Assembly (NCBI GenBank): GCA_000002435.2
Contig: CM018793.1
Source: Giardia intestinalis
Taxonomy: Eukaryota
Length of the DNA: 64,000 nucleotides
Reading direction: 5' to 3' (one strand)
The notes under the pieces are model-generated. The model saw only the letters and a list, made by a program, of their open reading frames with translations, did no database searches and was not told the DNA's origin. Within the stretch, counting starts at the first letter, position 1; each line of letters opens with the position of its first letter. Shown here piece by piece: positions 43,951 to 59,112 of the stretch. Position numbers and translations under genes: made by a program.

Positions 43951-43952
43951 CG

Positions 43953-43999: not shown

Positions 44000-44039
44000 A
44001 CTATAATAGTTTATGTCAATATGGCGCAATATACTAATA

Positions 44040-44130
44040 AATGTGAAATGAACACAAGTGTTTTGTGCAATGGTCACAAACGAAATGTGAACTTAGCACA
44101 AAATAAATGTGCACTGGTCACAGCGCCTCA
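44040..44130 (+). repeat. Iteron-like cluster of 4 AAATGTG[A/C]A units, including two longer copies (tgtgcaatggtcacaaacg and tgtgcactggtcacagcg), just inside the left boundary.
   Basis: The units repeat at about 20-45 bp spacing. Coordinates are approximate. Confidence 0.35.
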
Positions 44131-44622: not shown

Positions 44623-44671
44623 TCCTAAATAGGCCTATATAGCTTGAATAAAGGAAATCAGGGCCGTTTAC

Positions 44672-45361
44672 TTAAAAATAGAGCTTTTGGGCTTTTATTG
44701 CCACCTTGCGGCAAAGGGGGCACTCTATCGGCCTTCCGCGGATCCTTGCTTGCTCATCGAGGACATTAGCGCATTGTTCGCAGTAGGCGGCATGTCCACA
44801 GGGCATTAGAACGTGCGTGCGCTCCCTGTCTAGGCAGATCACGCACGCAGGCATGGTTACCTTATCGGGCAGACTGCGGCGAAGCATAGGGCGTATTCCG
44901 GCTGCTCGGCGCTTATAGCGCGCACAGGCCTTGCGGACGCGGCTATTTTCCTTCATCAACGCGCTTATCTCGCCTGTGAGCTCGTCGATGCGTTCCTCGG
45001 CTGCGTCGGCGACGTCTGCGGCCGCTCTGTAGTCGAGGATGGCCTCCTCCAGCTCCCTGTTTAGCTTTTCGCACTGTGCGTAGTATGTCTTAAGGCGAGC
45101 CTCGTAGTTCTTATGGAGGATCTCCTGGTCGAATTTTGACGCTTTTAGTGTCTCTCGCAGCCTCTTCAGCTTGAGGCCGCGGTGCGAGGACTGGGCGATG
45201 GCGTGGCGCAAAAGCTGCTTATCGGTCATATCAAGGTCCAGCTCGCTTACCGTGGTAGACGAGCTGGAGACCTCTTCCGATGGAGCGGGGCATGAGGGTC
45301 GCGCAGGAAGGCCTGCAATGCCAGGAAAACTCCCTATAACGTCAAAGACAGGCGTAATCAT
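44672..45361 (-). CDS. Coiled-coil protein with a C-terminal C3HC4 RING finger of IAP-like type (CVICLDRERTHVLMPCGHAAYCEQCA....CPLCR).
   Basis: RING Cys/His spacing at the extreme C-terminus matches the IAP/XIAP-type RING pattern. Confidence 0.65.
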   Translation of the reverse strand: MITPVFDVIGSFPGIAGLPARPSCPAPSEEVSSSSTTVSELDLDMTDKQLLRHAIAQSSHRGLKLKRLRETLKASKFDQEILHKNYEARLKTYYAQCEKLNRELEEAILDYRAAADVADAAEERIDELTGEISALMKENSRVRKACARYKRRAAGIRPMLRRSLPDKVTMPACVICLDRERTHVLMPCGHAAYCEQCANVLDEQARIRGRPIECPLCRKVAIKAQKLYF

Positions 45362-45512
45362 CTAGACGGGTCTTTTTCTCAATATACAATTTCACTTTAA
45401 AATGCTTTGCCGGCGTATATTATAGTGTAACATAGCAAAGTAGTGTAAATAAGAAAAATGGCGCCAAGGACCTCATAGCGCCTGGAGGTTAAAGAAGTGT
45501 AAATCAGCTCAT

Positions 45513-45999
45513 TTACTCATCGCTTTCCTCCTGGAAGTCCTTCGGTATGAAGCCGTGCTTGTAATAGAAGTCTTCCAGGGCGAGGCAGGCCTCCAGGTGG
45601 TCGCGGGCGAGGTCGTGGCGTTGCTCCGAGCTGTAGACGATCCAATTGCCAAGCATGTCGCGCCGCTTGAAGATCTGGATCGCCTTCAGCTGGAGGAGCC
45701 CGTCCGCCGCGCTGAGAACGTCAGGAAGGAGCCTAGAAAAGAAGTTGCTGCACCGTTCTACGTATAGATCGATGAGCATCAGGCGGTTCTTGTTGATGCG
45801 GGCGATCTGGGCCGCCCGGAGCCCGTTGCGGCGGCGGAACGAGCTTTGGCGTAAACCCTTCCGCGGCACCCGTTCGGTCCGGAGGCGGTGGAGCTGCTTC
45901 GTGTACGCGCTGATCAGCTCCCAGAGGCGCCCCTGGGACTCTGCCGCGTCGCACACCAGGATGGCGGGAATGTGGCCGAAAGCTGGTAGGAACATTTGA
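45513..45999 (-). CDS. Hypothetical protein of about 162 aa.
   Basis: The ORF-track ORF 45513..46187 overlaps the start of the 46068 gene. The internal Met at 45999 is preceded by an A-rich initiator on the minus strand (aaaaagccttcaaATG). Stop in AGTAAAT. Confidence 0.4.
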
Positions 46000-46067
46000 A
46001 GGCTTTTTCTTTCGATTTGAGAATCGAATTTAAAGTGTTTGCAACATATACGCCGCACAAAAAATAA

Positions 46068-48542
46068 ATGACGACGAGCTACATCCAGAGCGGCGGCGCA
46101 AGCCTCGAAATCGACCCGCTGACCGGCGAACTCACGTACGAGGACTTCCTCAACGCCATTGAGAAGGCCGAGCTGGAGCCTATCCAACCACCCAAGATCG
46201 ACCTGGGGAGCCCGTATTCCATATTCGGCATTCCCCTTGTCGATCAGATGTTCTCAGACGTCCTCGAGAACATCGACCTCTTCAAACAGGACATCGACAA
46301 GTTCATCGACTACCTCAAACGGAAGATCAAGCTGACGATCAACTGGACTGTGGCGCTTGCCGGCGTCACAACGATCTCGGCGCTCATCGGCGTGATCACC
46401 AGGGAAATCACCAACGCCATCTTCAACATAAAGCGAAAGCAAGAGTGGGAGGACCTCAACGACCCGGACGCTAAGGCAGAGATGATCCCCCAGGCAGACA
46501 TAGAGGCCAAGGAGGAGATCAGCGAAATGAGCGGGGAGGACATCGAACCGCCAAGTCTAGGAGAGATCGAGGAGCCCGTGCTCGATGAAGAAGGGAACGA
46601 GATGTTAAACCCCGACGGCACAACAATGATGACAACCCGCATCGTAGAACTGCCGCGGGACATCTCGGACCAGTACGACCCGATCCCCGAGCCGGTCGAT
46701 CTCTCCGAGGAGCCTCTTACGCCCGAGCTGGCCGAAGAGATAGAGGAGAACGAGGGCGACATCACCCTAGACGTAATCAATAAGCTTATGATGGAGTTCG
46801 ACCCGCAGGGGGTCACCCACGAGCAGAACAACGAGTGGCTCATCGATAGAGGGGTCTACATCCTGCATATCCCCCATCTGTTCCTCAAAAGGGAATGCCT
46901 CCCAGGCGGAATAAGAGCCGGAATCATAAATGGCGCCTGCGGCATGATTAACGGCGTCGTCATGCCTGCCGTGGCGGAACGCTATTCGCGCACGTACAGG
47001 CGGAGAGTTCACGTCTGTCCCTACGAGGAATCCAAAACGCATGCAGACAAGGAGCAATCCCCGGGCGGCAACCTCATGAACGTCCACTGCTGCATGTGCT
47101 TTGAAAAGAAGCGTGTTCTTAAGAAGGGAGATCCCTTATGGGCCGCCAATGTCTGCACCTGCATGCCGCCCTGCGAGTGTCCGTGCCACGAACGCTCGAC
47201 GAGACACATAAGGTATCTGAAGAAGACCTGCAGATCGTTTGCTCAAGAGGCTCCGTTGACTGGCTGGTGGGTTGGTTCTGATTGTATGGGAGACAGTCAT
47301 AAAACATATGAAAAAGACGATTATAACTGTCGATTCTACCCTTATATCTGCTATGAAAATGAAACGTCCGAACGGATAACAGACAAGCCAGAAAGTCGGT
47401 TTAATGTAATTCAGATCTGCCCGTTCTGCCAGATAATGTATGCCTACATCAATATCGTCGGAAAAGGCTACAAGCTCCACCGCTCCAACACAGAGGTCTA
47501 CATCTTCTTCACGAAGGGCGCCAACTCGACGCTGCTCCTCGGCGAGCCGGCGAAGTATTTGGTAACCGGCCCGGCGACCAACAAGACCTTCGACTATATC
47601 AATAAAAACGATAGCGCCTTCGACGACGCCATCTGGGGCCGTAAACCGTTATTCGAGTACCAGGGGCCTATCCAATGCAAGTGCTCCATTGGTCGCCCCA
47701 TATGCACGGCCGCCTTTAAGGGTAATGCCAACGAAGCACACACCAACCTCGTCACATATATAAAGGGCCACGCGCAGAAGATCAAGTACATCTACATGCC
47801 GGACTTCGAGGTGACGGGCGGCGATCCCTGGTGGTACAACGACCAGCACGACTACCAGTCGATCAAGGACCTCTGCATCTTCGACGGCATCCTCGAGCAC
47901 AAGGTCCCCGAGCACGTCTACCGCTTCTACGAGTACCGCCGGCTCCTCGACAAGACGTGGTTCCCGCGGCTCTACCAGGACATCTACAACCAGCTCACCA
48001 AGGACTATCCCGACATTCCCTCAGGCATGGACCATCCCACGGCCAAGAAGTGGAAGAACTGGAAGGCCTGGATGGCGATCGACAAGTTATTGAACGACCT
48101 CATCCCCATCCCGGAGATCTACCCGGAGCTCGCGGACAACCCGAATCCCCTCTTCGCGCGAAAGCCGGTGGGCTGGGAGCAGGCCAGTGAGTGGGGGACA
48201 GAGGCCGTGCCGTACTCGCTTCGCCTTCCCGAGGAACTCCAGCGCATTAAGGACTACCTCATACTGCTGGACAAATACTACCCGGGCTGGAGAGCGTTTC
48301 GCGATGAGCACGATCCGGGCTGGTGGAGCGACTTCTGGCGGCAGATCCCCGTCATCGACAAGGACGCGCGGACGACCATCTTCCTCTACAGCGACCTCCG
48401 GATCGACAGGTATAAATTCGAGATCACCGGGGAGCCCGAGTGGTGGCGCGACTTCTGGGGCCCCACGATCAAGGACAACCTCCCCGACCCCGAGAGACCC
48501 CGCTCGTACCAGGAGGTCCTCGAGGTCGTAAAGGATTACTAA
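46068..48542 (+). CDS. 824-aa predicted type-II or single-pass membrane protein with a large Cys-rich ectodomain.
   Basis: Hydrophobic segment WTVALAGVTTISALIGVIT about 90 aa from the N-terminus. This is followed by an acidic linker and a Cys-rich region (CMCFEKK...CTCMPPCECPCH...CPFCQ). High GC3. A-rich initiator aaaaataaATG. Confidence 0.6.
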   Translation: MTTSYIQSGGASLEIDPLTGELTYEDFLNAIEKAELEPIQPPKIDLGSPYSIFGIPLVDQMFSDVLENIDLFKQDIDKFIDYLKRKIKLTINWTVALAGVTTISALIGVITREITNAIFNIKRKQEWEDLNDPDAKAEMIPQADIEAKEEISEMSGEDIEPPSLGEIEEPVLDEEGNEMLNPDGTTMMTTRIVELPRDISDQYDPIPEPVDLSEEPLTPELAEEIEENEGDITLDVINKLMMEFDPQGVTHEQNNEWLIDRGVYILHIPHLFLKRECLPGGIRAGIINGACGMINGVVMPAVAERYSRTYRRRVHVCPYEESKTHADKEQSPGGNLMNVHCCMCFEKKRVLKKGDPLWAANVCTCMPPCECPCHERSTRHIRYLKKTCRSFAQEAPLTGWWVGSDCMGDSHKTYEKDDYNCRFYPYICYENETSERITDKPESRFNVIQICPFCQIMYAYINIVGKGYKLHRSNTEVYIFFTKGANSTLLLGEPAKYLVTGPATNKTFDYINKNDSAFDDAIWGRKPLFEYQGPIQCKCSIGRPICTAAFKGNANEAHTNLVTYIKGHAQKIKYIYMPDFEVTGGDPWWYNDQHDYQSIKDLCIFDGILEHKVPEHVYRFYEYRRLLDKTWFPRLYQDIYNQLTKDYPDIPSGMDHPTAKKWKNWKAWMAIDKLLNDLIPIPEIYPELADNPNPLFARKPVGWEQASEWGTEAVPYSLRLPEELQRIKDYLILLDKYYPGWRAFRDEHDPGWWSDFWRQIPVIDKDARTTIFLYSDLRIDRYKFEITGEPEWWRDFWGPTIKDNLPDPERPRSYQEVLEVVKDY

Positions 48543-48543
48543 T

Positions 48544-51500
48544 TCACAAGCTGTAGTTCTCGACCGAGCTCCTGGCCCAGTACCAGATCGCCACCCGCTG
48601 GCCGCCGCCAATCTTGCCGATGCTTTTATCATATGCAAAGCGTAGCGTGACGTTGATGTAGCTGTCATTGGAGTTGCCTTCGCGATAGTCGTTCCAGGCC
48701 ACGAAGACGCGGTCGTAGGACGTCACCCAGACGTCGTAGGGCACAATCGAGACGATGCAGTCGTTGCTCTTGCTGATGGCGTCGCTGGGGAGGCTGGACA
48801 TGGAGATCCGCATGAAGCCGTTGCCGTCCGTCGTCTGGCCGGGGATCCACTTCCGGACGAGGTACTGGTACTTCAGCTCTCGGCAGACATAGGTCAGCTT
48901 GTTTGACTGGGCGTTGAGCGTCGCGATGCTGTCCCGGTTCAGCCGGATCGAACTCTCAAAGCCGGAGACGGTCGACTCGAGCCTACTGAGCCTGCTCGAT
49001 GCGGAGCTCAGCGAGCCCTGGAGGTTGCTCACCGTGACTTTGAGGGAGGCGATCTGGTCCCGGTTCTGCCCAACGGACCTCTTGAGAGTCGTTACTTCGT
49101 CTGTCCATATGGCGATGGTATCTGCGTTGTTCTTGATCCTGGTCTCGTTAGCCCTAATTTTGCCTTCGCAATTGGCCACCCTTGTTGTAAGAGCTGATAG
49201 AGCGGTTTCTTGCGTCCTAGTCGTGTCCCAGAGCCCCCGTATGTTGCTCTCGGCGGCGTTGACCCGCGTCTCGAGGGCCGCATAGTCGGTTGTATTGCTC
49301 TTGAGGTCGTTTATGCTAGTCTTCATCTCAGAAATGTCGCTCTCGTTAGTCGCTATGCGCTCTTCATAACCAGCGAGTCGGCCAGACAGAGTGTTGTAAC
49401 GGTCCGATATCTCTGTAATAGTCACATTGAGTCTCTCGATGGTCGCCCGGTCCTCCTCCCTCTCCCTCTCGAGCGCTGCGACCCGGGCCGACAGACCTGA
49501 CACGTCCTGAATAACCGCAGAATCGTCCTTTGAACCCTCCTTGGACTCTAACGCATCGAGGCGCTCGGTAAGCCTTCTGATCAGCTCGTCTTGCGCCACA
49601 ATGCGCTCGGTGAGGAGCCTCCTCTGCTCGGCCGACCGCTCCTGCTCCTCTTCGATCTGGGCTTCCAAAGCATCGTTGCGGGCAGAGGTCAAACTGCTGA
49701 TGGCCTTAACCTGGTACTGCAGCTCCGCGACGAGCTCCCGCAGGTAGTTGTAGGCGCCCTCGAGCTCGGTCCGGATCCCGCTCATGTCTATGATGCCGCC
49801 GACCGGGTCTGTGAACGAGATCCCGTTCCGCTCGAAGAATTGGACAACGACTGTCATCAGGATCTCGATGCGGTTCCGGAAGTCCATGATGTCATTCTGG
49901 TTCTCGGTGAGTCTCTCGATCCGCTTGGCGTGGACCTTCGCCTCCTCCTGCAGCGCTTCGATGGCTACTTGGTCCTCTCCGGCGATGCTCTGAAGCACCT
50001 TGATGTGATTCTTCGCCCGGGCAGCCTCCAGATGCACGAGGGACACGTCCCGGTTGATGTGCGAGAACTCGTTCCAGATAAACTCGAAGCGGTAGAAGAG
50101 GTCGTCGGTCAGGAACTTGTAGATCCTCTTAAACTTGTAATCGTGCTCGTCGAGCCGGTTCTTCGCCTGGATCGCATAGGCAAGGCCTGTGGAGGCGACG
50201 GTCAGGATAGCCGCGTCCAAGGCATAGCCTACGGCCATGTTGATCACGTTGAGCTTCGATCCGATGCCGCCTGTGTTTCCGCCCTTGTTGATTTTGTCCT
50301 GGAGTTTCTTGTAGTCGTTGTCATCGGCCAAAAGCTTCGCCTTGAGGTACTTGACGGCCGCCTGGAGTTTCGTTATCTCGAGGTCGAGCTTCTTGTTGTT
50401 CCGCTCCAAATTCTGGATCTTGGTCTCGTGCTTCAGGGCCCGCTTGCCCAGATAACGCGTCTGGTGCGTGACACGGCCCTGCGAGAGCTTCTTGAGGTTC
50501 TTGATCTTCAGATAGCTGCCCCCGATCTTGTAATTGCCGCCGATGTGCTTGCGAAGTCCGTTGTCCTCGTCTCCGTCTTCGTCCTGGCCCTGCAGCTGGC
50601 GGTAGAGCCACATCGTCTGCTGGTTGACCGTGGCCGCCATGAAATCTGCCCGGGACACGCGGCCGTAGGGAGAAAGCTTCTGGTTGTTCCTGCCAGCCAG
50701 AGAGCCCCCGACCATCTCATAGAGGTACTGGATCTGCTGGAAGAGGGGCTGCTTGCGGAAGTCATCCTGGGAGATGGCGTTCCCTATGCCGATCTTGCCC
50801 TCCAATGCGTCAGGGATGAGATCGTTATCCCTGGTTTTCTTCTTCTTGAGCTTCCGAGGCTTCTTGGGCTTCTGCTCCTTCTTCTTCTTCTTGAGCAGCG
50901 CCTTCTGGTCCGCCATCGGTAAGAGCTCCTCTCGGAAGGCGTAGTTCCCCATCATCATCCACTGGAGGGCGACGATCTTCTGCACGATCGTGAGCCCCCG
51001 CATGTACTCGGACTTGTTCGTCGTGTCGCGCATGTACTCCTCGGGCTGGAAGTTGTTGTTAAAGCCGACGATCGGGGCCGCCTTCTTCATCGCCTTCGTG
51101 AGCTTCCCGCCGTTGAGGGCGATGTTGAAGATGCCCTTCGGCGTATTCTTGAAGCCGATGATCTCCTCCATGAACTTGACAAGAAATACCAGACACGGGC
51201 CCTTCAACGGAGACATCCCATCTAACATGTTTCCGTTGTAGTCTTTGATCTCGTAGTTGTGGGCATTGCAGTAGTACCGGAGAGCACTGGCCTTGTCTTT
51301 TTCGGTCATGAGCTGCGTCGCGCAATGGACGGTCTTCGGACCAAAATATCCCTGAAGACGATGAGTCAGATTTATGTTCAGATTGCTTCCCAAGAGAGCC
51401 CTCCGTTGATCGTCTCTCAAAGCATTACGCTCGCAGAACTCCTTGAGCACATTGAAGTAATACTCTGACGCAAAGCTAAGCTGATCGACGACCTTCTGAA

Positions 51501-51561
51501 GGCTCTCCTTCGTCACGAACTTCCCATCCAACTGCTCCGTGCGGATGATGAGGTTGTTCAT
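48544..51561 (-). CDS. 1005-aa protein with a globular N-terminal domain, a Lys-rich NLS-like stretch (KKKKKEQKPKKPRKLKKKK), a long central coiled-coil and a C-terminal globular domain.
   Basis: Uninterrupted ORF with strong heptad periodicity in the middle third. Confidence 0.6.
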   Translation of the reverse strand: MNNLIIRTEQLDGKFVTKESLQKVVDQLSFASEYYFNVLKEFCERNALRDDQRRALLGSNLNINLTHRLQGYFGPKTVHCATQLMTEKDKASALRYYCNAHNYEIKDYNGNMLDGMSPLKGPCLVFLVKFMEEIIGFKNTPKGIFNIALNGGKLTKAMKKAAPIVGFNNNFQPEEYMRDTTNKSEYMRGLTIVQKIVALQWMMMGNYAFREELLPMADQKALLKKKKKEQKPKKPRKLKKKKTRDNDLIPDALEGKIGIGNAISQDDFRKQPLFQQIQYLYEMVGGSLAGRNNQKLSPYGRVSRADFMAATVNQQTMWLYRQLQGQDEDGDEDNGLRKHIGGNYKIGGSYLKIKNLKKLSQGRVTHQTRYLGKRALKHETKIQNLERNNKKLDLEITKLQAAVKYLKAKLLADDNDYKKLQDKINKGGNTGGIGSKLNVINMAVGYALDAAILTVASTGLAYAIQAKNRLDEHDYKFKRIYKFLTDDLFYRFEFIWNEFSHINRDVSLVHLEAARAKNHIKVLQSIAGEDQVAIEALQEEAKVHAKRIERLTENQNDIMDFRNRIEILMTVVVQFFERNGISFTDPVGGIIDMSGIRTELEGAYNYLRELVAELQYQVKAISSLTSARNDALEAQIEEEQERSAEQRRLLTERIVAQDELIRRLTERLDALESKEGSKDDSAVIQDVSGLSARVAALEREREEDRATIERLNVTITEISDRYNTLSGRLAGYEERIATNESDISEMKTSINDLKSNTTDYAALETRVNAAESNIRGLWDTTRTQETALSALTTRVANCEGKIRANETRIKNNADTIAIWTDEVTTLKRSVGQNRDQIASLKVTVSNLQGSLSSASSRLSRLESTVSGFESSIRLNRDSIATLNAQSNKLTYVCRELKYQYLVRKWIPGQTTDGNGFMRISMSSLPSDAISKSNDCIVSIVPYDVWVTSYDRVFVAWNDYREGNSNDSYINVTLRFAYDKSIGKIGGGQRVAIWYWARSSVENYSL

Positions 51562-51622
51562 CTATTTTAATTTCGCAACCATTTAGAATCAGAATCTCGT
51601 TTCGGAAAATAAAATGGTGTAA

Positions 51623-52150
51623 ATGGCTACTCTCAAAGACCTTCTGAACACCAATCCAATCGGCATGAGCGAGGAGAACTACGCGCAGCTGCTGCGCTCC
51701 CTCGAGACCCTCAACTACGGCCAGCTGCGCCAGTACGTGCTGGCCCGCCTCAAGCCCCTCGTCGACAACGTCCGCAAGCATCTCCAGGAGGACCCTGTCG
51801 GCTCGATCGACCAGGTCCTCGACTTCCAGGACGCCTTCTGCACCAAGGAGCTGATCCAGACCGTCCGCTGGAACCTCGCGCAGTTCCAGGTGAACGCGAA
51901 GAACCCCCGCAAGGCGCCGGCCGTGCGCAGCAAGGAGGCGACGGAGCTCTCGTACGCGACGGACTACAGCTTCCGGCGCATCGTCTACCCGATCGTCGCA
52001 GACCTCGCGAAGATCCTCTACCTCCGCGCCGAGGAGGCGAACGTCCGGAACCCGAACAGCCTCGTGCGCTACATCCCGCTCCTTATCATGTTCAACCAGC
52101 AGAACGCAATCGGCTACCCGCCCCGCGTCGCCTTCCTCGTGACGCCAGTA
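51623..52150 (+). CDS. Hypothetical protein of about 175 aa with an uncertain 3' end.
   Basis: The ORF continues without a stop through the hairpin and repeat region to 52594, encoding a low-complexity P/R/G-rich tail. That tail is probably non-coding, so the true end is unresolved. Alternatives are a frameshift, a pseudogene or an assembly issue. Confidence 0.35.
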
Positions 52151-52172
52151 GTATATATCCTTGTGGTGCCCA

Positions 52173-52220
52173 CTTTCGTTTTTTTGGGCCTGCACGGGGC
52201 TGGGCCCAAAAAAACGAAAG
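52173..52220. repeat. Perfect 18-bp-stem hairpin (ctttcgtttttttgggcc / ggcccaaaaaaacgaaag) with a 12-nt loop.
   Basis: Exact reverse-complement arms were read from the sequence. The T7/A7 tracts give a terminator- or origin-like appearance. Confidence 0.8.
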
Positions 52221-52467
52221 CGTCCCCCACAAGTGCGTCTGCGTGTGCCGGTCCGCCCACTAGGCTCCCACACGCTGGCGCTCGTTTACCTACTTTTCAA
52301 CAGAATAAAAAACCTGTAAATTTTCAAAAAAAATCGCGGCCTCCCCCCGGAACCGCCCAGCGTGGTGCCGTGCACGCCGGGAGGAGACCGCGTTGTCCTT
52401 GGATGTGTGTGATGCGTTCGCGCCCGGTTCAGCTGCCGGCCAGCCTGGTCTGCTCCCTGCCCCCGGG

Positions 52468-52546
52468 CCCGCACGACACCGAAGTGCGACATACAGACAG
52501 CCCGAAAGCAGAAAGCAGGCCAGCGTTATTTTTTTTTTCTGGGAGG
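52468..52546 (+). repeat. Repeat module A copy 2. It is followed at about 52570..52608 by module B (gaattgattctgat...), whose other copy is at about 42691..42714.
   Basis: Similarity by eye to 43064..43123 and 42691..42714. Both module-B copies sit about 30 bp upstream of an 'aaataaaa..ATG' ORF start (52628 and 42756). Confidence 0.5.
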
Positions 52547-52627
52547 CGGCAGTCAGGAAGTGCAAACCATTCTGACGAATTGATTCTGATCTGATTAATT
52601 GATTCAGGGCGGGGAGGAAAATAAAAT

Positions 52628-53074
52628 ATGACGGATGAGCATTTGGGTGGCGGCGACGTTCAACCTGATAGGGACGATGGCGACGCTGGTGTGTCTGGGG
52701 ATAACGGCGTCGTCGTGCAAGAAGACAGCGTCGATCATGCAGGAGATCCTGGACAGACAGAAGGCCCGCCAACAGCAGAGCCAGCCACAGTACCAGCAGG
52801 CGCCGACTCCCCCGCTGTACCAGACGAGCCAATGGATGAGTCAGAGCTACTAGCAGAGCTCGCGTCTGATAAGATTACCATGCCGATGATGGTTATCACT
52901 ATGGGAGGAAGGTTCTTCGACTGCAAGGACGCTGAGCTCACTGTCACGATGAAGGTAAACGACGAGACGATGGAAGGATGCTATGTCTTGATTGGAGATA
53001 CTGTTCAGGAGGGGGAGGATGGAATAAAGTTAATGGGGTTGGTGTTCAAGCGCAAGGACGTGCCGGCAGAGTGA
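52628..53074 (+). CDS. 148-aa protein: acidic disordered N-terminal half plus a small C-terminal domain.
   Basis: ORF with A-rich initiator (aaaataaaatATG). Stop in AGTGAAT. Confidence 0.5.
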   Translation: MTDEHLGGGDVQPDRDDGDAGVSGDNGVVVQEDSVDHAGDPGQTEGPPTAEPATVPAGADSPAVPDEPMDESELLAELASDKITMPMMVITMGGRFFDCKDAELTVTMKVNDETMEGCYVLIGDTVQEGEDGIKLMGLVFKRKDVPAE

Positions 53075-53076
53075 AT

Positions 53077-54543
53077 TCACTTGTAGAAGAGCTGGAAGAT
53101 GGGGGCCCAGTCGCCCTCTATCTTGGCAGAGAAGGGCCTTGCGTCGACAGAGCCGTCGGGGTAGGTGACTATGTGGTCTGCGCGGAAGTGTAACTTGTTG
53201 GTCGGCTTTTCCAGCTCGTGCCACGCCCAGAACAGCGGGTTGATGACTTGGTAGCGGTCGTGGATGCGGCGGGCAGAGACGATGGGATATCTCTCGTGGT
53301 ACTCTTTGCAGTAGAGGTTGATGCGGCTGTCCTTGTTATACCAGACATACGGCGGAATCTTTATGCGCGTTGTAGGAGAGATCGCCTCATAGAGCTTGAT
53401 AAGATCCGTCTTCCTGATGTGCCAGGCAGTGATAAAGTCTGGCGTTATCATTAGCATGGTTACCGTGGTCATCAGAACGAGATCGTCTCCATCTAACCAG
53501 GCCGCGATATAGGGACCGCTTGGGTTAGGCCCTATTTCTTTCAAGAAGTAGTTGTTGATGTATTTGAAGATGTTGACCATGGCGGTCTTAGTGATGACTG
53601 TTCCGCGGAGCGACAGGAAGTACGGGTCCTTGTGGGGGTAGAAGCGTCTGACCTTCTTGCTTGTTACCTCGATATATGCGTCTTTGCCATATTCGAAGGT
53701 GAAGGTCGGCTCAAGGAAGAAAAAGTCAGGGACGCTCAGCTTGGCGACGGGCGAGTGCAGGAGGATGGCATGAGGCTTTTCGAAACGAAAAAACCCCTGC
53801 TTCTTTTCGTGTTCTGCAGACTCCGTGATGAAGAGTTCGAGATAGACGGGAGCGAGGGTGAATGGGCGGTTGTTTTGGTCAAGGATCTCTATGTCGATGA
53901 TTCGGCCCTCATTGATGCGGTGGTTAACGGCGATGTGGGGGTTGATGAGGGAGAAGTTGTTTGTGATGTGCATAACGCCAATGCAGGCCGGCATTGTCAT
54001 GTTGGAGTCAGACGTGCCGCAGACGTTCTTGCAGATGATCTGGAGATACTTGAGGGTGACGGGAGGATAGGGGATGTCTGAGAGGAGGATGCTCCGTTCG
54101 CCTTGCGGAAGGTTTCGGGAGAATAGTTGCTTGGTGGTTCCGAAGCCAAGTGCCCAGGCAGCCGACGGAGAGAGGTTGAGATTTATGAAGTGGTTCTCTG
54201 CTGTGATTGCTTGTGTTAGTATGAAACGAACAAAGCCATCCTCGGTAATGTTTATTTCGACGTTAGCAGATATGCTGTGTGAGATCAGGTCAGCAAGGTT
54301 CTTAGCGACTCCGTCGAATTCGAATAACGTCTGGTTGGCGGTTACGTCGGTAATGTTGAAGGCGCCGATGCTGTCGAATATAGAAAGCGGGGAGTATGCG
54401 CTAACGAGACTCATATAGTGGCCTGTCGGATAGTGAGAGAGGATTTCGCGGATCTTGTTGCTGTATATCGCATGGTTTACGAGACCCTTTCCTATATTTT
54501 TAATTGTTATAACACCTGTCTGCTTTGTCTCGAGTCTCAGCAT
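53077..54543 (-). CDS. 488-aa hypothetical protein, beta-rich by composition. It could be a structural or virion protein.
   Basis: Uninterrupted ORF. It shares a 12-bp A/T-only divergent promoter (tattttttaatt) with the ATPase gene. Confidence 0.55.
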   Translation of the reverse strand: MLRLETKQTGVITIKNIGKGLVNHAIYSNKIREILSHYPTGHYMSLVSAYSPLSIFDSIGAFNITDVTANQTLFEFDGVAKNLADLISHSISANVEINITEDGFVRFILTQAITAENHFINLNLSPSAAWALGFGTTKQLFSRNLPQGERSILLSDIPYPPVTLKYLQIICKNVCGTSDSNMTMPACIGVMHITNNFSLINPHIAVNHRINEGRIIDIEILDQNNRPFTLAPVYLELFITESAEHEKKQGFFRFEKPHAILLHSPVAKLSVPDFFFLEPTFTFEYGKDAYIEVTSKKVRRFYPHKDPYFLSLRGTVITKTAMVNIFKYINNYFLKEIGPNPSGPYIAAWLDGDDLVLMTTVTMLMITPDFITAWHIRKTDLIKLYEAISPTTRIKIPPYVWYNKDSRINLYCKEYHERYPIVSARRIHDRYQVINPLFWAWHELEKPTNKLHFRADHIVTYPDGSVDARPFSAKIEGDWAPIFQLFYK

Positions 54544-54555
54544 TATTTTTTAATT

Positions 54556-55500
54556 ATGCCGCTCGATCTCTCGCTCAAGACTGCGTCTACCAAGGACGCG
54601 CTCGAGTTCCGGGAGAAGCGCTTCCCGGTCTCGAACAACTGCTTCATCCCGATCGTGGGTGTGACGGGCTCTGGGAAGACGACGATCATCATCAACCTCT
54701 TCCGTCTTCTCAATGAGATCTACCGCTACAGCCACATCATCTATGTCGCCGCGAACTACCGCCAGGACGCGACGCTCAGGGCAGCGAACCTCACCCAGGT
54801 AGTTCTCGAGGACTACGTGGAGTTCGAGCAGGAGCGCGAGCATACGAAGCACGTCTACACGGCGAGCACCGATCTGCTGGACGTGGCCATCATGAAGATC
54901 TACGAGCTCCAGGACCTCCACGCGAAGGCCGAGGAGCTCCGGGAGCAGAGGAGGCAGATAGCGAGGGCGATCAAGATCGCGAAGGACCAGCAGCCAGAGC
55001 TCCTCGAGGACCTTGTTGCCCGCTACATCACAATCACCGAGGAGATCGACTCCATAGCGCCGACCAGCGACGGCACGCGTCCGAAGGTCCTCCTCGCCAT
55101 CGACGATAACTCGGGTGCCAAGGCCTTCAAGGTCAACTCTGAGAACAACCTTGTGTACCGCCTCATCAGGGACAGGAGACACCACAACACCTCTGTCCTC
55201 GCCTGCATCCACAACCTCAAGGCCTTCCACGCGCCCTTCCGCATGCATGCGACGGAGTTCATCTTCACGGCAGGTCTCAACAGCCAGGCGCTCAAGGATG
55301 TTTACGAGGACCTGGGGAACATCTTCCCGATCATCAACGAGAAGGCCCAGGACGGCACGAAGGCGTGCGACCTCTTCTGCGGGCTCTACGACAAGGTGAC
55401 GGGCGTCTACCCGAACGACGAGAGCCGCCGCTACTACTTCCTCACCGTCTTCCGTAACGCAAGGGAGCTCAGGGAGAACTTCGACACTGTCCTCAAGTAA
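54556..55500 (+). CDS. Poxvirus A32-like (FtsK/HerA-superfamily) genome-packaging ATPase, with an inserted coiled-coil segment of about 100 aa.
   Basis: The motif order and sequences match the NCLDV/Polinton A32 family. Walker A is FIPIVGVTGSGKTTIIINLF (vaccinia A32: FRMVLTGGSGSGKTIYLLSLF). Then IIYVAANY (A32: IFLFTPVY). Walker B is KVLLAIDDNSG (A32: RFLLIFDDVGD). The family-typical RRHHNTSVLACIHNL matches A32's GRHLNTSIILLCQTY. The true ATG at 54556 is preceded by 'ttttttaattATG'. Confidence 0.75.
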   Translation: MPLDLSLKTASTKDALEFREKRFPVSNNCFIPIVGVTGSGKTTIIINLFRLLNEIYRYSHIIYVAANYRQDATLRAANLTQVVLEDYVEFEQEREHTKHVYTASTDLLDVAIMKIYELQDLHAKAEELREQRRQIARAIKIAKDQQPELLEDLVARYITITEEIDSIAPTSDGTRPKVLLAIDDNSGAKAFKVNSENNLVYRLIRDRRHHNTSVLACIHNLKAFHAPFRMHATEFIFTAGLNSQALKDVYEDLGNIFPIINEKAQDGTKACDLFCGLYDKVTGVYPNDESRRYYFLTVFRNARELRENFDTVLK

Positions 55501-55506
55501 ATAAAA

Positions 55507-55896
55507 ATGCGTGCTCACACCCAGGCGGACGACTACGGTCGCGTCTACACTGTCTCACACCTCCCCTCCTGCGCTGTCCTGCCGACGGGGTCTCCTCCGT
55601 ATGCGCCTCCCCGCGTCGTGCAGGCCTTCAAGGATCCCCTTGCCGGCACGCAGGTTCCCTTCAACTCGAAGAACGACCCGTCCGTGCACCGCATCGTGAA
55701 GGCCCGCCGCTTCGCCTCCCAGTCGAACCTCATCCCCCTCGACTGCAATAGCAACGCAAGGCACATCCAGGTCCCCATGCCCTCCAAGACCCTGACCCAT
55801 GCGATGGCGAAGCGCATCGACCCGTCACTCGCAGACACAAAGAGGCGCACCGCAAAGATGGAAGAGGCCAAGATGCGCATGCGCACGAAGAAGTGA
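55507..55896 (+). CDS. 129-aa basic protein, a possible DNA-binding or core protein.
   Basis: ORF starting directly after the ATPase stop (AGTAAATaaaaATG). Arg/Lys-rich. Stop in AGTGAAC. Confidence 0.4.
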   Translation: MRAHTQADDYGRVYTVSHLPSCAVLPTGSPPYAPPRVVQAFKDPLAGTQVPFNSKNDPSVHRIVKARRFASQSNLIPLDCNSNARHIQVPMPSKTLTHAMAKRIDPSLADTKRRTAKMEEAKMRMRTKK

Positions 55897-55916
55897 ACTC
55901 CTAGGAAAAAAAAATA

Positions 55917-56462
55917 ATGACAGCCAACGTTGACGTTCAGGCGATCGTCGCGGCGGTCCTCGAGAAGCTCAAGGAGCCTGCAGCTCCGAAGAGCGTCTAT
56001 GTGCCCCCGCAGGCCAAGCAGGCGAAGACGCGCATGAAGGAGGTCCCGATCACCGCCCGAGAGGACCCTGACATCGACCCCTACAAGGAGCTCCCCGAGA
56101 TCAACCGCGAGACCCACGAGTACATCTATTGCAAGAATGGGAGGTGGAGGGCCGTCCCCAAGCAGACCCCCGAGCAGATCAAGGAGCGCACGGAGAAGAT
56201 GCTCGAGTCGCGCCTCAGGAAGCGCGCCGAGGCCACCAAGAGGCTCGAGGAGAAGCTCGCCCAGATAAGGGCCGAGAAGATGGAGGAGAGCATGGTCGAG
56301 ACCGTGGCGCCCCCCAAGAGCGAGGAGGAGCACGAGTCGGGCGACGAGGGAGACCCGGAGCTCTCGAAGATCATCGCCGACCACCTCGCCGAGAAGCAGC
56401 GCAAGGAGAGCCATGCAGCAAACGTGTCAAGCGTGTTCGGCGTCTCGGTCACGCATAAGTGA
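55917..56462 (+). CDS. 181-aa highly charged K/E-rich protein.
   Basis: ORF with initiator aaaaaaaaataATG. Probably largely helical or disordered. Confidence 0.45.
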   Translation: MTANVDVQAIVAAVLEKLKEPAAPKSVYVPPQAKQAKTRMKEVPITAREDPDIDPYKELPEINRETHEYIYCKNGRWRAVPKQTPEQIKERTEKMLESRLRKRAEATKRLEEKLAQIRAEKMEESMVETVAPPKSEEEHESGDEGDPELSKIIADHLAEKQRKESHAANVSSVFGVSVTHK

Positions 56463-56478
56463 ATGAAAAAAAAAAATC

Positions 56479-59097
56479 ATGGCGATCGCCATTAACCCCG
56501 ATGTCCGCGAGCTGGACTTCAGCGACAACGTCAAGGTCTCGAAGTTCATGCAGGACTTCTCGGACTTCAGGGCGAAGAAGTGGATCACCTACAGGCCAGT
56601 GAACGCGCCCAGCGAGAGCGAGCCCTTCTTCGGGGGGACGAGACAGTTCATTATCAACATGGGCACGGGTCACATCCTCGACACAATGTATTCTGGGCTC
56701 TGGTTTGAACTTTACTTCCAGAATAATAGTGATGTGGTGTTGTGGCCTATACAGGCTTCTCTTCCTCGCACTTCTTCAGCTTGGATCGAGTCGGTGACGT
56801 TCCAGCATTCGAAGGTGGCAGCCCACATAGATGAACGCCTCTGCGATTACAACGCTGTCAGCACCATCTTTATTCCCGCGAAAGACATCCTCAGTATGAG
56901 GCAGACCTTTTTCACTACGGCAAATCAGCAGTTTGCAGACAATAATATGTTCAATGATGCCGTAGCCGATGATATATATGGCAAGCTTATGCCTGTAGGC
57001 TCGTTGACTACTTCTCGCATATCCCAACAAACCTTTTCTTTCTTCATCCCGCTTCGTTATTTATCAACCATCTTCAATTCAGGCAGATACTTCTTCCCAA
57101 GCCTGCTTCGCGGTAATGGTGAGATGACTCTATCTATTCGCTCTGTTGCTGCGTCTCTTTCAGAGGTGTTTGGTGGTTCTCGCAGTTCTATGGCCATTTA
57201 TATGAATCCTAATTTAAATGATTACCTTTGGTCAACTGCCGCTTCTGACAAAAAGATTAACTGGGATGTTTGTATGTATAATATGAAGTTAGTTACGCTC
57301 TGTCTCGATAACGCTTTTCTTACCAAAGAGTACAACGCCTTCATTGCCAGCGGCCGCAAATTTATTCGCTCTTTCAAAGCCTATAACTACCAGTTCTACC
57401 AGGTCAAGCAGGGTTATAATCGAATTGAGATAGCGAACACCCATCAGTCGATATCGCACATTGTTCTTGCGTTCCAGGTGCCGTATTCTGTACGCGTCGA
57501 TGGTCGAGCTATTTCGATGATGGATAATCAGTCATTTGGTATTCAGAAAACAACAGCGGGCACAACAAGCCAAACGATTAATGCCAAGAACCAGGGCGCA
57601 TTTGTTCCGACACGAGCAAGACCTTCTATGACAGGTCACGCCGGTAATAATTATCAGCCAGCGCCAGACAACCCGTACATTTCAGCATCAAGTCCAAACC
57701 CTCCTTCTGGTACTCGCGCATTTGGTAGAAAGGCGTTTGATCTTGGTACTAGTATAATGTGCAAGATATGGGATAGTGCTAAAAATCTGAACTGGTCATT
57801 TTTAGCACAACCGACTCTTGCCCTTGCGGCCAGTGGCCTTCCTAAGTCAGTACAACCTCTCGTAACAGCAACAGCCAATATGTTAGTTCAGAGTTCCTTG
57901 CAAAGCGCCACTAGAGCTGGAAGTGTTAAAAGACCTGCGCCGAGAACGTCCCAAGAGAATGATTTGTTAAAGCTTCAAAGAAATAATGCCCAAAGCCTAG
58001 CTAGAGGTTTTATGGATCCAAAGAATCGTGATGTTATAGGGACGTTTATTGACGAATTTAACAAATCGACAGGCGGTACTCTTGGAATAACCGAATTTAA
58101 TGCTATAGCACATCAGTTCCTAACTATGAATAATGCCAAAAGTAATTTAACACAAAAACAAAAGGATGTTTTTACAGATCTTATGAATATGAAGAAACTT
58201 GATCCTGTCTCAATTAACTTGATAGCTTATTATGCAACAGATGATGAGAGTGGTCCGTCAGCCATCACCAATGACCAAGTGAAGAATTATCTTTTGAAAC
58301 ACAACATAGATGAAGCTGACATAGATGAGGTGACCGATATTATAGCACGTCATAATTTAGAAACGGCAGGGGTATCTGTCTCCCAGGGAAGACTTGCTTT
58401 AAACGGTTTGGAAATAGATACCAATACCCAGAAAGTCGTTGCCGAGACCATGGATCGAATATTCGGAAGCGATGATACGTTAAAGACTGCCTTTACTGAG
58501 AGTCAGAAGACGTACTTGGCAAAAATTCTCGCAGAGCTGACTGACCAGAACCACTTGGATCATCACAAGTTCTTTACGCAAATGTTCCCCGCCGAGCCAA
58601 AGCAACTCTTTGATCTCGGCATGCACGTTATCGAGAACCTTCAGGTGTACCGCGGGACCGGTAACGGTGAGACGGTCTTTTCAGAACCAATTAACGGAGA
58701 CATGTTCTACCACATAAGTAGGGAGGCAATGGGCGATTCTGCTGAGAACCATCCATTTTTCAGTCTTGAGAATTTCAACAAGGACATGGCAGTAATTGTA
58801 ATTAGTCTCAACACTTTCATGCGCGACGCTCACCACGAGTTCTGGGACGGGTTCAGCACGAACCGCGTTGCTGATCGTCTCTATGTGGAGTTCAATAATG
58901 AGGAGTTTGTCATTCCGGATCTGTCTAAGATTCAACCTTGGTTTGATGATATCGGTTACCAGGATAATTGTATCGGCCTAGACTGCAAGGTCTTCACGAT
59001 CTACGACAACATCTACTTCATCGACCGCGACAACAACCTGAACGTGTCCGACACGCTCCTGCCCCTCCAGGAGGGCCGCATTCCTGGGTCTGACTGA
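56479..59097 (+). CDS. 872-aa candidate double-jelly-roll major capsid protein (large, with insertions), or another virion structural protein.
   Basis: The N-terminal segment W.TYRPVN......FFGG.RQFIINMG.GHILD.MY..L.FEL follows the pattern of the first jelly-roll B-C strands of NCLDV/Polinton major capsid proteins (TNF...FG..V...I.R.GDL......E..L). This is a pattern-level resemblance only. Confidence 0.35.
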   Translation: MAIAINPDVRELDFSDNVKVSKFMQDFSDFRAKKWITYRPVNAPSESEPFFGGTRQFIINMGTGHILDTMYSGLWFELYFQNNSDVVLWPIQASLPRTSSAWIESVTFQHSKVAAHIDERLCDYNAVSTIFIPAKDILSMRQTFFTTANQQFADNNMFNDAVADDIYGKLMPVGSLTTSRISQQTFSFFIPLRYLSTIFNSGRYFFPSLLRGNGEMTLSIRSVAASLSEVFGGSRSSMAIYMNPNLNDYLWSTAASDKKINWDVCMYNMKLVTLCLDNAFLTKEYNAFIASGRKFIRSFKAYNYQFYQVKQGYNRIEIANTHQSISHIVLAFQVPYSVRVDGRAISMMDNQSFGIQKTTAGTTSQTINAKNQGAFVPTRARPSMTGHAGNNYQPAPDNPYISASSPNPPSGTRAFGRKAFDLGTSIMCKIWDSAKNLNWSFLAQPTLALAASGLPKSVQPLVTATANMLVQSSLQSATRAGSVKRPAPRTSQENDLLKLQRNNAQSLARGFMDPKNRDVIGTFIDEFNKSTGGTLGITEFNAIAHQFLTMNNAKSNLTQKQKDVFTDLMNMKKLDPVSINLIAYYATDDESGPSAITNDQVKNYLLKHNIDEADIDEVTDIIARHNLETAGVSVSQGRLALNGLEIDTNTQKVVAETMDRIFGSDDTLKTAFTESQKTYLAKILAELTDQNHLDHHKFFTQMFPAEPKQLFDLGMHVIENLQVYRGTGNGETVFSEPINGDMFYHISREAMGDSAENHPFFSLENFNKDMAVIVISLNTFMRDAHHEFWDGFSTNRVADRLYVEFNNEEFVIPDLSKIQPWFDDIGYQDNCIGLDCKVFTIYDNIYFIDRDNNLNVSDTLLPLQEGRIPGSD

Positions 59098-59112
59098 GTG
59101 AATGGAATAAAA

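Follow-up and report, generated by a model that had tools for sequence, protein, structure and literature searches.

The hairpin at positions 52173–52220 is very probably the subterminal palindrome of the terminal inverted repeat (TIR) of an endogenised, protein-primed DNA virus of the Maverick/Polinton type, which lies at a rearrangement junction and carries a spurious ORF tail. For a specific cis function of the palindrome in viral replication or integration, which we infer, the chances are about even. The window, that is, the whole stretch of DNA analysed, is 64 kb of Giardia intestinalis WB chromosome 5. A perfect inverted repeat was read directly at 52173–52190 and 52203–52220 (ctttcgtttttttgggcc-tgcacggggctg-ggcccaaaaaaacgaaag), with 18-nt arms and a 12-nt loop (52191–52202), as the preliminary description had it. 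In a repeat search the arms lengthened to 31 nt (52160–52190 and 52203–52233, 87% complementarity), the extension being an outer 7-bp stem (cttgtgg/ccacaag; 52160–52166 with 52227–52233) separated from the inner stem by a 6 × 6 internal loop. The predicted fold was very stable, with an RNA minimum free energy of −43.8 kcal/mol (z = −4.86; 0 of 200 shuffles folded equally well) and −27.2 kcal/mol with DNA parameters. By chance, ~6e-5 perfect 18-bp inverted repeats with a loop of ≤60 nt are expected per 64 kb. The palindrome at 52160–52233 was the sole strong local inverted repeat in the window. A giant-virus 'hairpin rule', with a hairpin at each gene end, was dropped because only one such repeat was present and the DNA is that of Giardia.

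The hairpin is read through by an ORF at 51623–52594 (323 aa), annotated as GL50803_92663 and 100% identical to NCBI protein GL50803_0092663. This ORF had been described as a read-through, possibly disrupted gene with a low-complexity P/R/G tail, and the description held on both counts. The first in-frame stop was at 52592–52594 and the tail was P/R/G/A-rich. Residues 1–175 shared 59–74% identity with the N-termini of intact 1189–1198-aa polymerases with PF03175 (loci L012, L014, and L019), whereas residues 176–323 showed 19–22% identity, which is the noise level. The genuine portion of the gene, by similarity to the intact polymerases, is a remnant of codons 1 to ~175 of a protein-primed DNA polymerase (pPolB) (51623–52146, plus strand), and the read-through tail without polymerase homology occupies 52147–52594 on the same strand. 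Homology stopped at 52146–52153, where the BLAST match to L001 and L016 ended at 'LVTP', and no reading frame brought it back downstream of the break. Polymerase alignments that reached residues 225–240 were discarded as alignment run-on, given the drop in identity after residue 175. At both genome ends of relatives, the DNA matching the tail was non-coding upstream sequence. Between WB and P15, the repeats differed by 1- and 2-nt indels, and the P15 version had stops in all frames. Given that the repeat starts at the homology break and is laid out in this way in relatives, the 147-aa tail is translated non-coding TIR, and the annotated 323-aa 'protein' reads through the hairpin because the repeat happens to contain no stop codon. 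Judged from these alignments, GL50803_92663 is not a 323-aa protein: it is a 175-codon pPolB stump followed by the non-coding DNA of a viral end.

The TIR spans 481 bp (52147–52627), from the terminus to the start codon of the first gene, and was recognised by its identity to the end repeats of relatives. The WB repeat, on the capsid side, was 92% identical over its full length to the repeat at 2530–3012 of P15 locus L019, which lies on the polymerase side and has different adjoining genes. Complete ~24.5-kb relatives carried the repeat at both ends in inverted orientation, leading at each end straight into the promoter and first gene of the ~24-kb genome, and two ~24.4-kb contigs had collinear gene maps. 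Positions 480–675 of L012 were 99% identical, inverted, to the opposite end of their own contig k141_58354 (24,301 bp), which starts 6–7 nt inside the expected AGTAGT and has the core palindrome at nt 23–69. The AGTAGT, or (AGT)2, motif at 52147–52152 (plus strand) was taken as the physical terminus of the viral genome on the basis of the sequence outside it, which was unrelated in six contexts (WB, P15 L004, P15 L019, L008 left, L008 right, and L005). AGTAGT stood at the homology break in WB, L019, L008 (two copies), and L005, and AGTAAT in the degraded L004 copy. An A/T-rich block (ATATATCC) was located at nt 7–14 from the terminus, and the hairpin (52160) began 13 nt inside the AGTAGT end. 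Vertebrate Mavericks most often end in (AGT)2, a motif that has been tied to jumping-back in protein priming (PMC8097293). The L008 ends were flanked by AATATA and GACGGT with no duplication between them, in a set of copies none of which had host DNA at either side of a complete element.

The region had thus been misplaced when it was described as non-coding DNA inside the element: it is one end of the viral genome, in the form of its terminal inverted repeat, and is now internal in WB because the WB copy is permuted and rearranged. Two further suggestions, a recombination hotspot that disrupted the gene and a replication origin or nick site of the element, point the right way, because the break coincides exactly with the end of the element DNA, 13 nt ahead of the hairpin.

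Other isolates, assembled independently, and metagenomes also contained copies of the hairpin, and the palindrome was kept at a similar distance from the terminus (13–16 nt) in P15 (two copies), L008/L011, L005 (two copies), and L012/L018. Across five distinct sequences from four lineages, 8 of 28 pairs were altered on both sides, a number reached in 0 of 500 shuffles and to be compared with 0–4 such pairs in slid controls. Likewise, 86% of cells were paired in the palindrome versus 40–55% when the partners were slid. The T7GGG/CCCA7 core was invariant, the loop varied freely, and the distance from the end was fixed. The palindrome thus appears, from the pattern of substitutions, to be under selection. 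Symmetry of the stem could also arise by arm-to-arm copying, without functional selection. Counts of G-T and A-C mismatches in the stem showed no strand bias, and therefore did not separate selection at the RNA level from selection at the DNA level. A DNA-pattern scan of the JGI metagenomes and IMG/VR (AGTAGTAT...T6GG...CCA6) returned 37 loci, which were all rejected as chance matches; they had neither flanking complementarity nor relatedness, and one lay inside an 827-aa ORF.

The genes beside the TIR point to the same kind of virus. The pPolB family was assigned from PF03175 (E 2.7e-36) in the 1196-aa protein of L012, with syntenic 1189- and 1198-aa genes in L014 and L019; the window retains residues 1–175 and the fragment at 43410–43617. 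The pPolB of relatives has a long N-terminal domain. The first gene inside the repeat (52628–53074, plus strand, 148 aa) had positional homologues in L003, L004, L002, and L005. Next to it, a 488-aa protein (53077–54543, minus strand) with 34 homologues was modelled with AlphaFold from a 31-sequence alignment (pLDDT 82.7, pTM 0.79). Foldseek against the PDB gave the mavirus penton 6g41/6g42 as best match (E 2e-7, prob 1.00), together with the Sputnik penton 3j26_N, the matches ranging from prob 0.99 to 1.00 and E 2e-7 to 2e-5 with low TM-scores (0.16–0.30). The protein had been considered as the major capsid protein, an assignment that was overturned by the fold search; by its model, it is probably a minor capsid protein with a penton-like jelly-roll fold. 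Its relatives were not found in IMG/VR or the JGI metagenomes. An A32-like packaging ATPase is encoded at 54418–55500 (plus strand; Pfam Pox_A32 E 1.1e-5, 25.5 bits versus a cut-off of 22.8), with syntenic 314-aa genes in all relatives. Because these homologues are 314 aa long, its true start is probably near 54556.

The most conserved protein of the family, a candidate DDE integrase of 342 aa (59113–60141, plus strand), was 85–95% identical across nine copies. All nine gave a weak match to rve (PF00665; E 3e-4 to 6e-4, best 3.3e-4) at ~20 bits versus a gathering cut-off of 32.6, so the integrase assignment is weak and below the Pfam threshold. A profile search of PDB sequences with this protein gave no match, and its single-sequence model had a pLDDT of 35. 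For the major capsid protein, 872-aa and 773-aa candidates were noted, neither with a Pfam match. No adenain-like protease family was matched among the element ORFs scanned against Pfam, a scan that small ORFs or divergent folds could escape. Further genes of the element encode a deoxynucleoside kinase, a RING protein, and a long coiled-coil protein. The Maverick/Polinton features found are a pPolB, terminal inverted repeats, the (AGT)2 end motif, an A32-type ATPase, and a penton.

The permuted WB copy is bounded by a direct repeat of ~50 bp, with the left copy (TATAGGGGTATATA...) at 43949–43995 and the right copy at 63455–63505, both on the plus strand; the published miR27 starts within the latter, at 63495. 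To the left of the element, in GC-rich debris, a polymerase gene fragment (~aa 517–600, exonuclease region) was detected by tblastn and blastn at 43410–43617 (minus strand). An inner-repeat fragment of another copy, with a GCCCGCACGACACC...GTGCGACATAC module and a promoter-like A-rich block, was present at 43064–43150 (plus strand). The 41-kb 'silent gene cluster' of chromosome 5, which was reported in 2013 without explanation, starts at window position 44107. Its ORFs were reported to be essentially untranscribed, with polyadenylated transcripts near zero. The analysis shows that this cluster is an array of Maverick/Polinton-like virus copies.

Small RNAs have been reported from the same DNA. 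The 26-nt Argonaute-associated 'miR25' (TGGGCCCAAAAAAACGAAAGCGTCCC) matched 52201–52226 (plus strand) exactly, spanning the last 2 nt of the loop, the entire 3′ inner arm, and 6 nt of the internal loop. Its reads numbered 786, 5268, and 1400 per library (PMC3937270, Table S1 and read-count table). Published data therefore show that the 3′ arm of the hairpin, as plus-strand RNA of the host copy, gives rise to a 26-nt small RNA bound by Argonaute; this lends some support to the earlier idea of an RNA-processing structure. miR4, reported to derive from ORF GL50803_92663 (PMC11427974), matched 51837–51862 (plus strand) exactly, inside the polymerase remnant, and 17 published 'miRNAs' in all, on both strands, mapped to 50162–63982. 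miR25 and miR4 have been treated as miRNAs of a hypothetical ORF, gene 92663 (Liao et al., 2014, PMC3937270; Saraiya et al., 2011, as cited in PMC11427974). A count of the terms 'transpos', 'cluster', 'siRNA', and 'DNA polymerase' gave 0 for the main text, and the polymerase origin of miR4, the viral-end origin of miR25, and their clustering on a virus-like element are not mentioned in the miRNA papers.

These data raise the strongest alternative, which is nevertheless unlikely: that the hairpin works mainly as an RNA element, namely as a pre-miRNA-like substrate of Dicer that host or virus has selected for making miR25, and that it is conserved for this reason and not for a function at the DNA end. 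The Argonaute-bound RNA on the 3′ arm, whose 5′ end falls at the loop–stem boundary and which had 786–5268 reads per library, fits such an element, and the published pipeline demanded a foldable hairpin precursor (PMC3937270). Rfam added weak miRNA-precursor-like matches, although these reflect only hairpin shape: nothing reached the gathering threshold, and the best match, at 25 bits versus thresholds of 50–89, was generic like all the others. However, discrete locus-specific processing and conservation of the mature sequence were not found. The 26 nt of miR25 differed at one base in P15 L019 and at several in P15 L004. Reads throughout the miR4 ORF, noted by the authors themselves (PMC3937270), and the 17 'miRNAs' on both strands look like locus-wide siRNA production, and polyadenylated transcripts of the region are near zero. 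Moreover, the palindrome is fixed 13–16 nt from the genome end at both ends, one of which has no upstream promoter. A Giardia non-coding RNA gene, an intron, and a trans-splicing signal had also been considered, and GTATGT-like strings in the repeat modules were inspected; with nothing above threshold in Rfam, these candidates were abandoned when the region turned out to be a TIR.

If the palindrome is instead a viral end structure, as we favour, the free viral genome would be a ~24.5-kb linear DNA with AGTAGT at each end, followed inwards by the A/T-rich 8-mer, the palindrome at ~nt 14–87, and ~400 bp up to the promoter of the first gene. In WB, the polymerase gene of an adjacent or concatenated copy would have been fused at codon ~175 to one such end. 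The palindrome would act as a cis-acting end element whose hairpin is extruded either as protein-primed, strand-displacement replication unwinds or displaces the end, or upon binding of the integrase-like protein of the element. By means of the extruded hairpin, the end would be marked or positioned for the enzymes of replication or integration, and the AGT-AGT reiteration would serve the jumping-back step of protein priming. Against this cis role, adenovirus- and phi29-type origins are not known to need a hairpin. In the sole study that surveyed terminal palindromes, these were found mainly in elements lacking pPolB (bioRxiv 10.64898/2026.07.28.741278).

A little less probable than the miRNA alternative is a self-priming (snap-back) origin, as in parvovirus or poxvirus telomeres, in which the folded end primes synthesis and no protein primer is used. 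The hairpin does behave as a DNA foldback point, which counts in favour of the viral end reading too: contig L018 (42.7 kb) is an inverted dimer that turns exactly at the hairpin loop and in which the outer ~10 nt are absent. A 2026 preprint also offers a model of this kind for the palindromes of endogenous virophages and Polinton-like viruses (bioRxiv 10.64898/2026.07.28.741278). However, the extreme end is not formed by the hairpin: all copies have a further 13 nt, (AGT)2 motif included, beyond the stem. In this family the pPolB has a long N-terminal domain, and the end reiteration is of the protein-priming type. The arms of L018 are only 84–91% identical. Palindromic long-read contigs such as L018 can be artefacts.

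Two other explanations are very improbable. The hairpin had been proposed as a transcription terminator, or more widely as a 3′-end processing signal, of the gene at 51623, and it does lie just past the conserved coding part and forms a very stable stem-loop. However, that gene is a truncated pseudogene, and the hairpin comes from a different DNA segment. The stem is followed directly by gtgcgtctgcg, and a bacterial-type terminator scan found no GC-rich stem with a T run at 52160–52240. Elsewhere in the window, the stop codons of Giardia genes carry AGTAAA/AGTGAA-type signals and no hairpin, and the cluster is reported to be untranscribed. Equally improbable is that the repeat and hairpin come from a separate small transposon, and not from the virus itself, inserted in the polymerase gene. 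In L008/L011, two inverted copies of the terminal ~40–300 bp do flank a 1.3-kb AT-rich segment encoding a protein of a PD-(D/E)XK 'transposase' family, but the AGTAGT ends face this segment, which therefore lies outside the repeats. At either end of the ~24-kb genome the repeats run instead into promoter and first gene, and the AT-rich segment is absent from WB, P15, L005, and L012. Finally, an assembly or sequencing artefact, either the frameshift in a longer gene suggested earlier from the odd low-complexity ORF tail or a chimeric palindrome, is effectively refuted by the independent assemblies in which hairpin and repeat recur without the junction, by the small RNA sequenced from the hairpin, and by the lack of any frame that restores polymerase homology downstream.

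A broader proposal is possible but on balance doubtful. The palindrome may have a dual use, as a DNA-end structure of the virus and, once transcribed from an integrated copy, as an entry point for Dicer and Argonaute. Much of the Giardia 'miRNA' repertoire (miR4, miR25, miR27, and ~36 others; 39 of 105 by Table S1 count) might then be siRNA-type silencing of the endogenous Maverick-like virus array that makes up the chromosome 5 silent gene cluster, and the ~24.5-kb metagenome relatives might be a still-circulating Giardia DNA virus. Apart from this proposal, the annotation of GL50803_92663 as a 323-aa protein is corrected, and the silent cluster of 2013 gains an identity. The experimentally studied miR4 and 16 further catalogued putative miRNAs in the window are virus-derived, with miR25 coming from the viral end hairpin. 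A defensive role of Giardia Dicer and Argonaute against integrated DNA viruses, and the role of a subterminal hairpin at the ends of a protein-primed virus, are now testable. The well-known virus of Giardia is an RNA virus; the present results suggest that a DNA virus family with genomes of ~24.5 kb is associated with this host as well.

Comparison with known systems places the element close to the Mavericks. Poxviruses and parvoviruses have hairpin telomeres and concatemer junctions, and the L018 inverted dimer, with the hairpin at its axis, resembles such a junction. Unlike those telomeres, the Giardia end has 13 nt, including the end motif, outside the hairpin and belongs to a genome with a protein-primed polymerase and without a recognisable resolvase. 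The adenovirus ITR origin comprises a terminal CATCATCA reiteration, a core origin (ATAATATACC) at nt 9–18, a dyad-symmetric NFI site, and an Oct-1 site. In both systems a 3-nt reiteration, an A/T-rich block, and a dyad-symmetric element are found within the first ~90 nt of the repeat of a protein-primed genome, but in the Giardia element the dyad is a long covarying stem. The auxiliary sites of adenovirus are short protein-binding sequences that are not known to serve as hairpins.

The terminal inverted repeats of Mavericks/Polintons are said to have been described by Kapitonov and Jurka in 2006 and by Pritham et al. in 2007. These are linear pPolB elements with terminal repeats of 46–1447 bp, (AGT)2 ends, an ATPase, a penton, and a retroviral-type integrase (Barreat and Katzourakis, 2021, PMC8097293). 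The Giardia element shares with them a 481-bp repeat starting with AGTAGT, a pPolB, an A32-like ATPase, a penton-like protein, and a weakly rve-like protein. It differs in its larger genome (~24.5 kb versus ~17 kb), in its deoxynucleoside kinase, RING, and long coiled-coil genes, and in its diplomonad host; the protease, the major capsid protein, and a 6-bp target-site duplication were not found here. It also differs in the covarying 28–31-bp palindrome 13 nt from the end, hairpins and palindromes being mentioned 0 times in PMC8097293. Palindromes of ~50 nt within terminal repeats have been described in endogenous virophages and Polinton-like viruses of Halocafeteria seosinensis, with a proposed role of the hairpin in replication (bioRxiv 10.64898/2026.07.28.741278). 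Unlike these, the Giardia element has a pPolB and a protein-priming end motif, and its palindrome is subterminal. Beyond the Halocafeteria case, the Giardia palindrome shows covariation between its arms and a small RNA from one of them.

Sequence comparison identified the hairpin core at window 52173-52220 as a palindrome in subterminal position within a viral terminal repeat. The preliminary description of a perfect 18-bp hairpin with T7/A7 tracts inside a read-through ORF was confirmed: the 18-mers at 52173-52190 and 52203-52220 were fully complementary, both tracts included, around a 12-nt loop, and the ORF at 51623-52594 crossed them without a stop. The arms reached 31 nt (52160-52190 and 52203-52233), with a 6x6 internal loop followed by a 7-bp outer stem. 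A repeat search showed this to be the sole strong local inverted repeat within the 64-kb window, and the chance expectation for a perfect 18-bp inverted repeat in DNA of this size was ~6e-5. The calculated folding energy was -43.8 kcal/mol as RNA (z = -4.86) and -27.2 kcal/mol as DNA.

The 323-aa ORF was 100% identical to hypothetical protein GL50803_0092663 of Giardia duodenalis, which places the window in the chromosomal DNA of Giardia intestinalis WB. Apart from identical matches, the first search recovered a single homologue, P0002; it runs on over 543+ aa and includes two exonuclease motifs known from protein-primed polymerases, FADFET and FHNLNYDG. Intact syntenic genes in related loci (1189-1198 aa) matched Pfam DNA_pol_B_2 (E 3e-36). 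Against three intact polymerases, identity fell from 59-74% in aa 1-175 to 19-22% in aa 176-323, and homology, both nucleotide and protein, ended at 52146-52153, at '...LVTP'. The pseudogene option of the preliminary description is supported, and the alignments identify the ORF as a polymerase stump. Since the P15 DNA equivalent to the ORF tail contained 1- and 2-nt indels relative to WB and stops in all frames, the comparison shows that the tail is spurious and non-coding.

WB 52147-52627 was 92% identical to a segment of P15 contig ACVC01000219 (L019, 2530-3012). In L019 the repeat occupies the opposite end of the map, where the genes downstream of it lead to an intact polymerase, and its adjoining genes differ from those beside the WB repeat. 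In L004, a second and more diverged P15 copy, the alignment began at the identical first base. A 24,301-bp metagenomic contig (L012) starts TATGTATTCC, followed by the palindrome, and its nt 480-675 recur in inverted orientation at the other end with 99% identity. Because the repeat occurs at the opposite end of L019 and inverted at both ends of the 24,301-bp contig, 52147-52627 is a terminal inverted repeat, which spans the stretch between the genome end and the first gene's start codon. Outside AGTAGT(A)T the sequence was unrelated among WB (polymerase codon 175), the two P15 copies (GC-rich DNA; a truncated 773-aa-family gene), the two ends in the related contigs L008/L011 (an AT-rich segment) and the two copies in another relative, L005 (a truncated copy of the first gene). 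The 24,301-bp contig terminates a few bases short of the expected AGTAGT. In vertebrate Mavericks (AGT)2 is the commonest end motif, and the reiteration is taken to permit jumping-back in protein-primed initiation (PMC8097293). Inside the repeat, two blocks at window 52300-52392, AACAGAATAAAAA(A/G)CCTGTAA and CCCCCCGGAACCGCCCAGCGTGGTGCCGTGCACGCCGGG, were near-invariant between WB and both P15 copies amid diverged surroundings, and may be further cis elements. The inner part held a module, GCCCGCAC-N-GTGCG-ACATAC(C/A)GACAGC, often in two tandem copies (window 52467-52501 and 43064-43098; L005 12040-12110; L012 465-530), then a T/A run resembling an outward-facing Giardia initiator; GTATGT is present in its reverse complement.

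Across related copies, a distance of 13-16 nt separated the palindrome from the end: it was present in WB, P15 (L019 and L004), L008/L011, both L005 copies and L012/L018, and all copies folded into the same two-tier hairpin. Covariation was measured in a five-sequence alignment of 28 rungs, with slid partners and 500 shuffles as controls. Pairing was observed in 86% of cells versus 40-55% with partners slid, and 8 pairs were altered on both sides versus 0-4; none of the 500 shuffles reached the observed values. The T7GGG/CCCA7 core was invariant, the loop was free to vary, and the part forming the internal loop in WB was fully paired in two lineages (L008 and L012). By this alignment, the palindrome is a conserved, covarying part of the repeat.

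Two metagenomic contigs, of 24,301 and 24,474 bp, had an identical complete gene order: two small genes, deoxynucleoside kinase, protein-primed family-B DNA polymerase (pPolB), ~970-aa coiled-coil, ~800-aa and RING genes, followed by genes for 240, ~710-840, 342, ~900, 193 and 129 aa, an A32-like ATPase and a 486-aa protein. The pPolB was identified by Pfam and is intact in relatives, and the packaging ATPase scored above the Pox_A32 cut-off. The 488-aa protein (53077-54543) gave a confident predicted model (pLDDT 82.7), whose best PDB matches were the mavirus and Sputnik penton proteins. The 342-aa protein (window 59113-60141), with 85-95% amino-acid identity across the family and a weak match to rve, the retroviral-type integrase core, in 9/9 copies, is a tentative candidate integrase. 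Its gene is by far the most conserved of the family; identity is 43-84% for the penton-like protein. The Pfam scan of the element ORFs revealed neither a protease nor a major capsid protein. The element is called Maverick/Polinton-like because of its pPolB, Pox_A32-type ATPase and penton-like model.

In L008 (11432-12768) and also L011, two AGTAGT termini of the element face inward onto a 1.3-kb segment of 27-35% GC that precisely fills the space between them and encodes a PD-(D/E)XK 'transposase' family protein (PF12784, E 3e-32); the contigs come from two sequencing runs, and in the right-hand repeat the distal half of the hairpin is missing. The polished long-read metagenomic contigs L018 (42.7 kb) and L005 (33.1 kb) contain giant palindromes of the element (3051-21228 and 6382-19859, arms 87-91% identical), which may reflect either genuine inverted dimers or errors of assembly. 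The axis is the hairpin loop in L018 and duplicated inner-repeat sequence beside a truncated first gene in L005. Past the end of the P15 copy, L004 14139-21317 holds a block of uncharacterised genes, one deoxynucleoside-kinase-like, and may be a different virus-like element.

Compared with the complete genomes, the WB copy (window 43995-63455) is circularly permuted and opened at the TATAGGGGTATATA motif, which in relatives is internal, between the RING and 240-aa genes. In WB this motif is a ~50-bp direct repeat at both borders (GGGATATAGGGGTATATA..., 43949-43995 and 63455-63505), bounding the permuted copy. The border repeat contains TAGGG-like units that resemble the Giardia telomere repeat, and relatives L002 and L005 carry its motif internally. 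It could be a recombination site, origin or promoter. At 52146/52147 the polymerase stump runs directly into the capsid-side repeat at its outer end; with this fusion the second repeat, the kinase, three small genes and ~1000 codons of the polymerase are lost. Ends fused to internal points of other copies were also seen in L019 and L005, and such joins look like scrambled linear-DNA arrays or nested insertions. P15 has the same right-hand flank as WB (L004 656-816 matches window 63989-63820) but not, by comparison with L004, the left-hand junction; the insertion is therefore old and was rearranged later. To the left of the WB copy, 41440-43950 (63-64% GC, no convincing genes) contains a minus-strand polymerase fragment (43410-43617) and an inner-repeat fragment (43064-43150), and is probably what is left of a further, decayed copy. 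The window also carries a single 6966-aa ORF (125-21025) and a 478-bp, 99% identical duplication with a histone H2B gene (28194-28671 and 34469-34945; KRHETYATYIYKVL...); its genes have A-rich initiators right before start codons and AGTAAA/AGTGAA at stop codons. These features agree with an origin from Giardia.

A known small RNA comes from the 3′ arm of the hairpin. miR25 (TGGGCCCAAAAAAACGAAAGCGTCCC; 786, 5268 and 1400 reads), listed among 105 Argonaute-associated putative miRNAs (Liao et al., 2014, Table S1; PMC3937270), matched window 52201-52226 exactly, covering the 3′ inner arm in full, together with the final two bases of the loop and six bases after the arm. miR4, which has been studied experimentally and is stated to derive from ORF 92663 (PMC11427974), lies at 51837-51862, within the polymerase stump. 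Seventeen of the 105 mapped to window 50162-63982, on both strands (miR4, 24, 25, 26, 27, 44-49, 92 and 95-99). By our own count from Table S1, 39 of the 105 fell in ~36 kb (CH991767:1,351,197-1,386,994), which also contains two 'DNA polymerase, putative' genes (PMC3937270). The most abundant of the listed small RNAs, miR27, has as many as 38,917 reads and begins in the right border repeat, at 63495. Liao et al. (2014) reported reads throughout the miR4 ORF and did not mention clusters, siRNAs, transposons or polymerases (PMC3937270). Franzen et al. (2013) independently described, with no explanation, a 'silent gene cluster' of 27 untranscribed ORFs (CH991767:1,345,142-1,386,976). Within the window it extends from 44107 to at least 64000, and its first base, 44107, is that of the first gene past the left border repeat. 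The clustering looks like siRNA production from an endogenous virus array. Once integrated, as in WB, the copy would yield an RNA hairpin that Dicer could cut, through plus-strand transcription at a low level or by read-through.

We favor the palindrome as a cis element of the viral DNA end. It follows directly on the (AGT)2 reiteration and an A/T-rich 8-mer, an arrangement similar to that of the adenovirus origin. When the DNA is unwound or displaced, a hairpin would form, which would then be recognised by replication or integration proteins. The inverted dimer L018, whose centre is the hairpin loop, suggests that the hairpin could serve as a foldback point, although the contig may be an artefact. 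Primary selection at the RNA level and self-priming replication were considered less likely, a transcription terminator or a separate small transposon unlikely, and an artefact very unlikely.

Maverick end motifs and terminal repeats were already known, as were miR25, miR4 and the silent cluster. In the literature searched, we found no earlier report of the cluster as Maverick-like virus copies, of complete ~24.5-kb relatives, of a covarying subterminal palindrome in a pPolB element, or of a viral origin of these small RNAs; each may have been described elsewhere. A July 2026 preprint reports terminal palindromes for endogenous virophages and Polinton-like elements, mostly those without pPolB (bioRxiv 10.64898/2026.07.28.741278).
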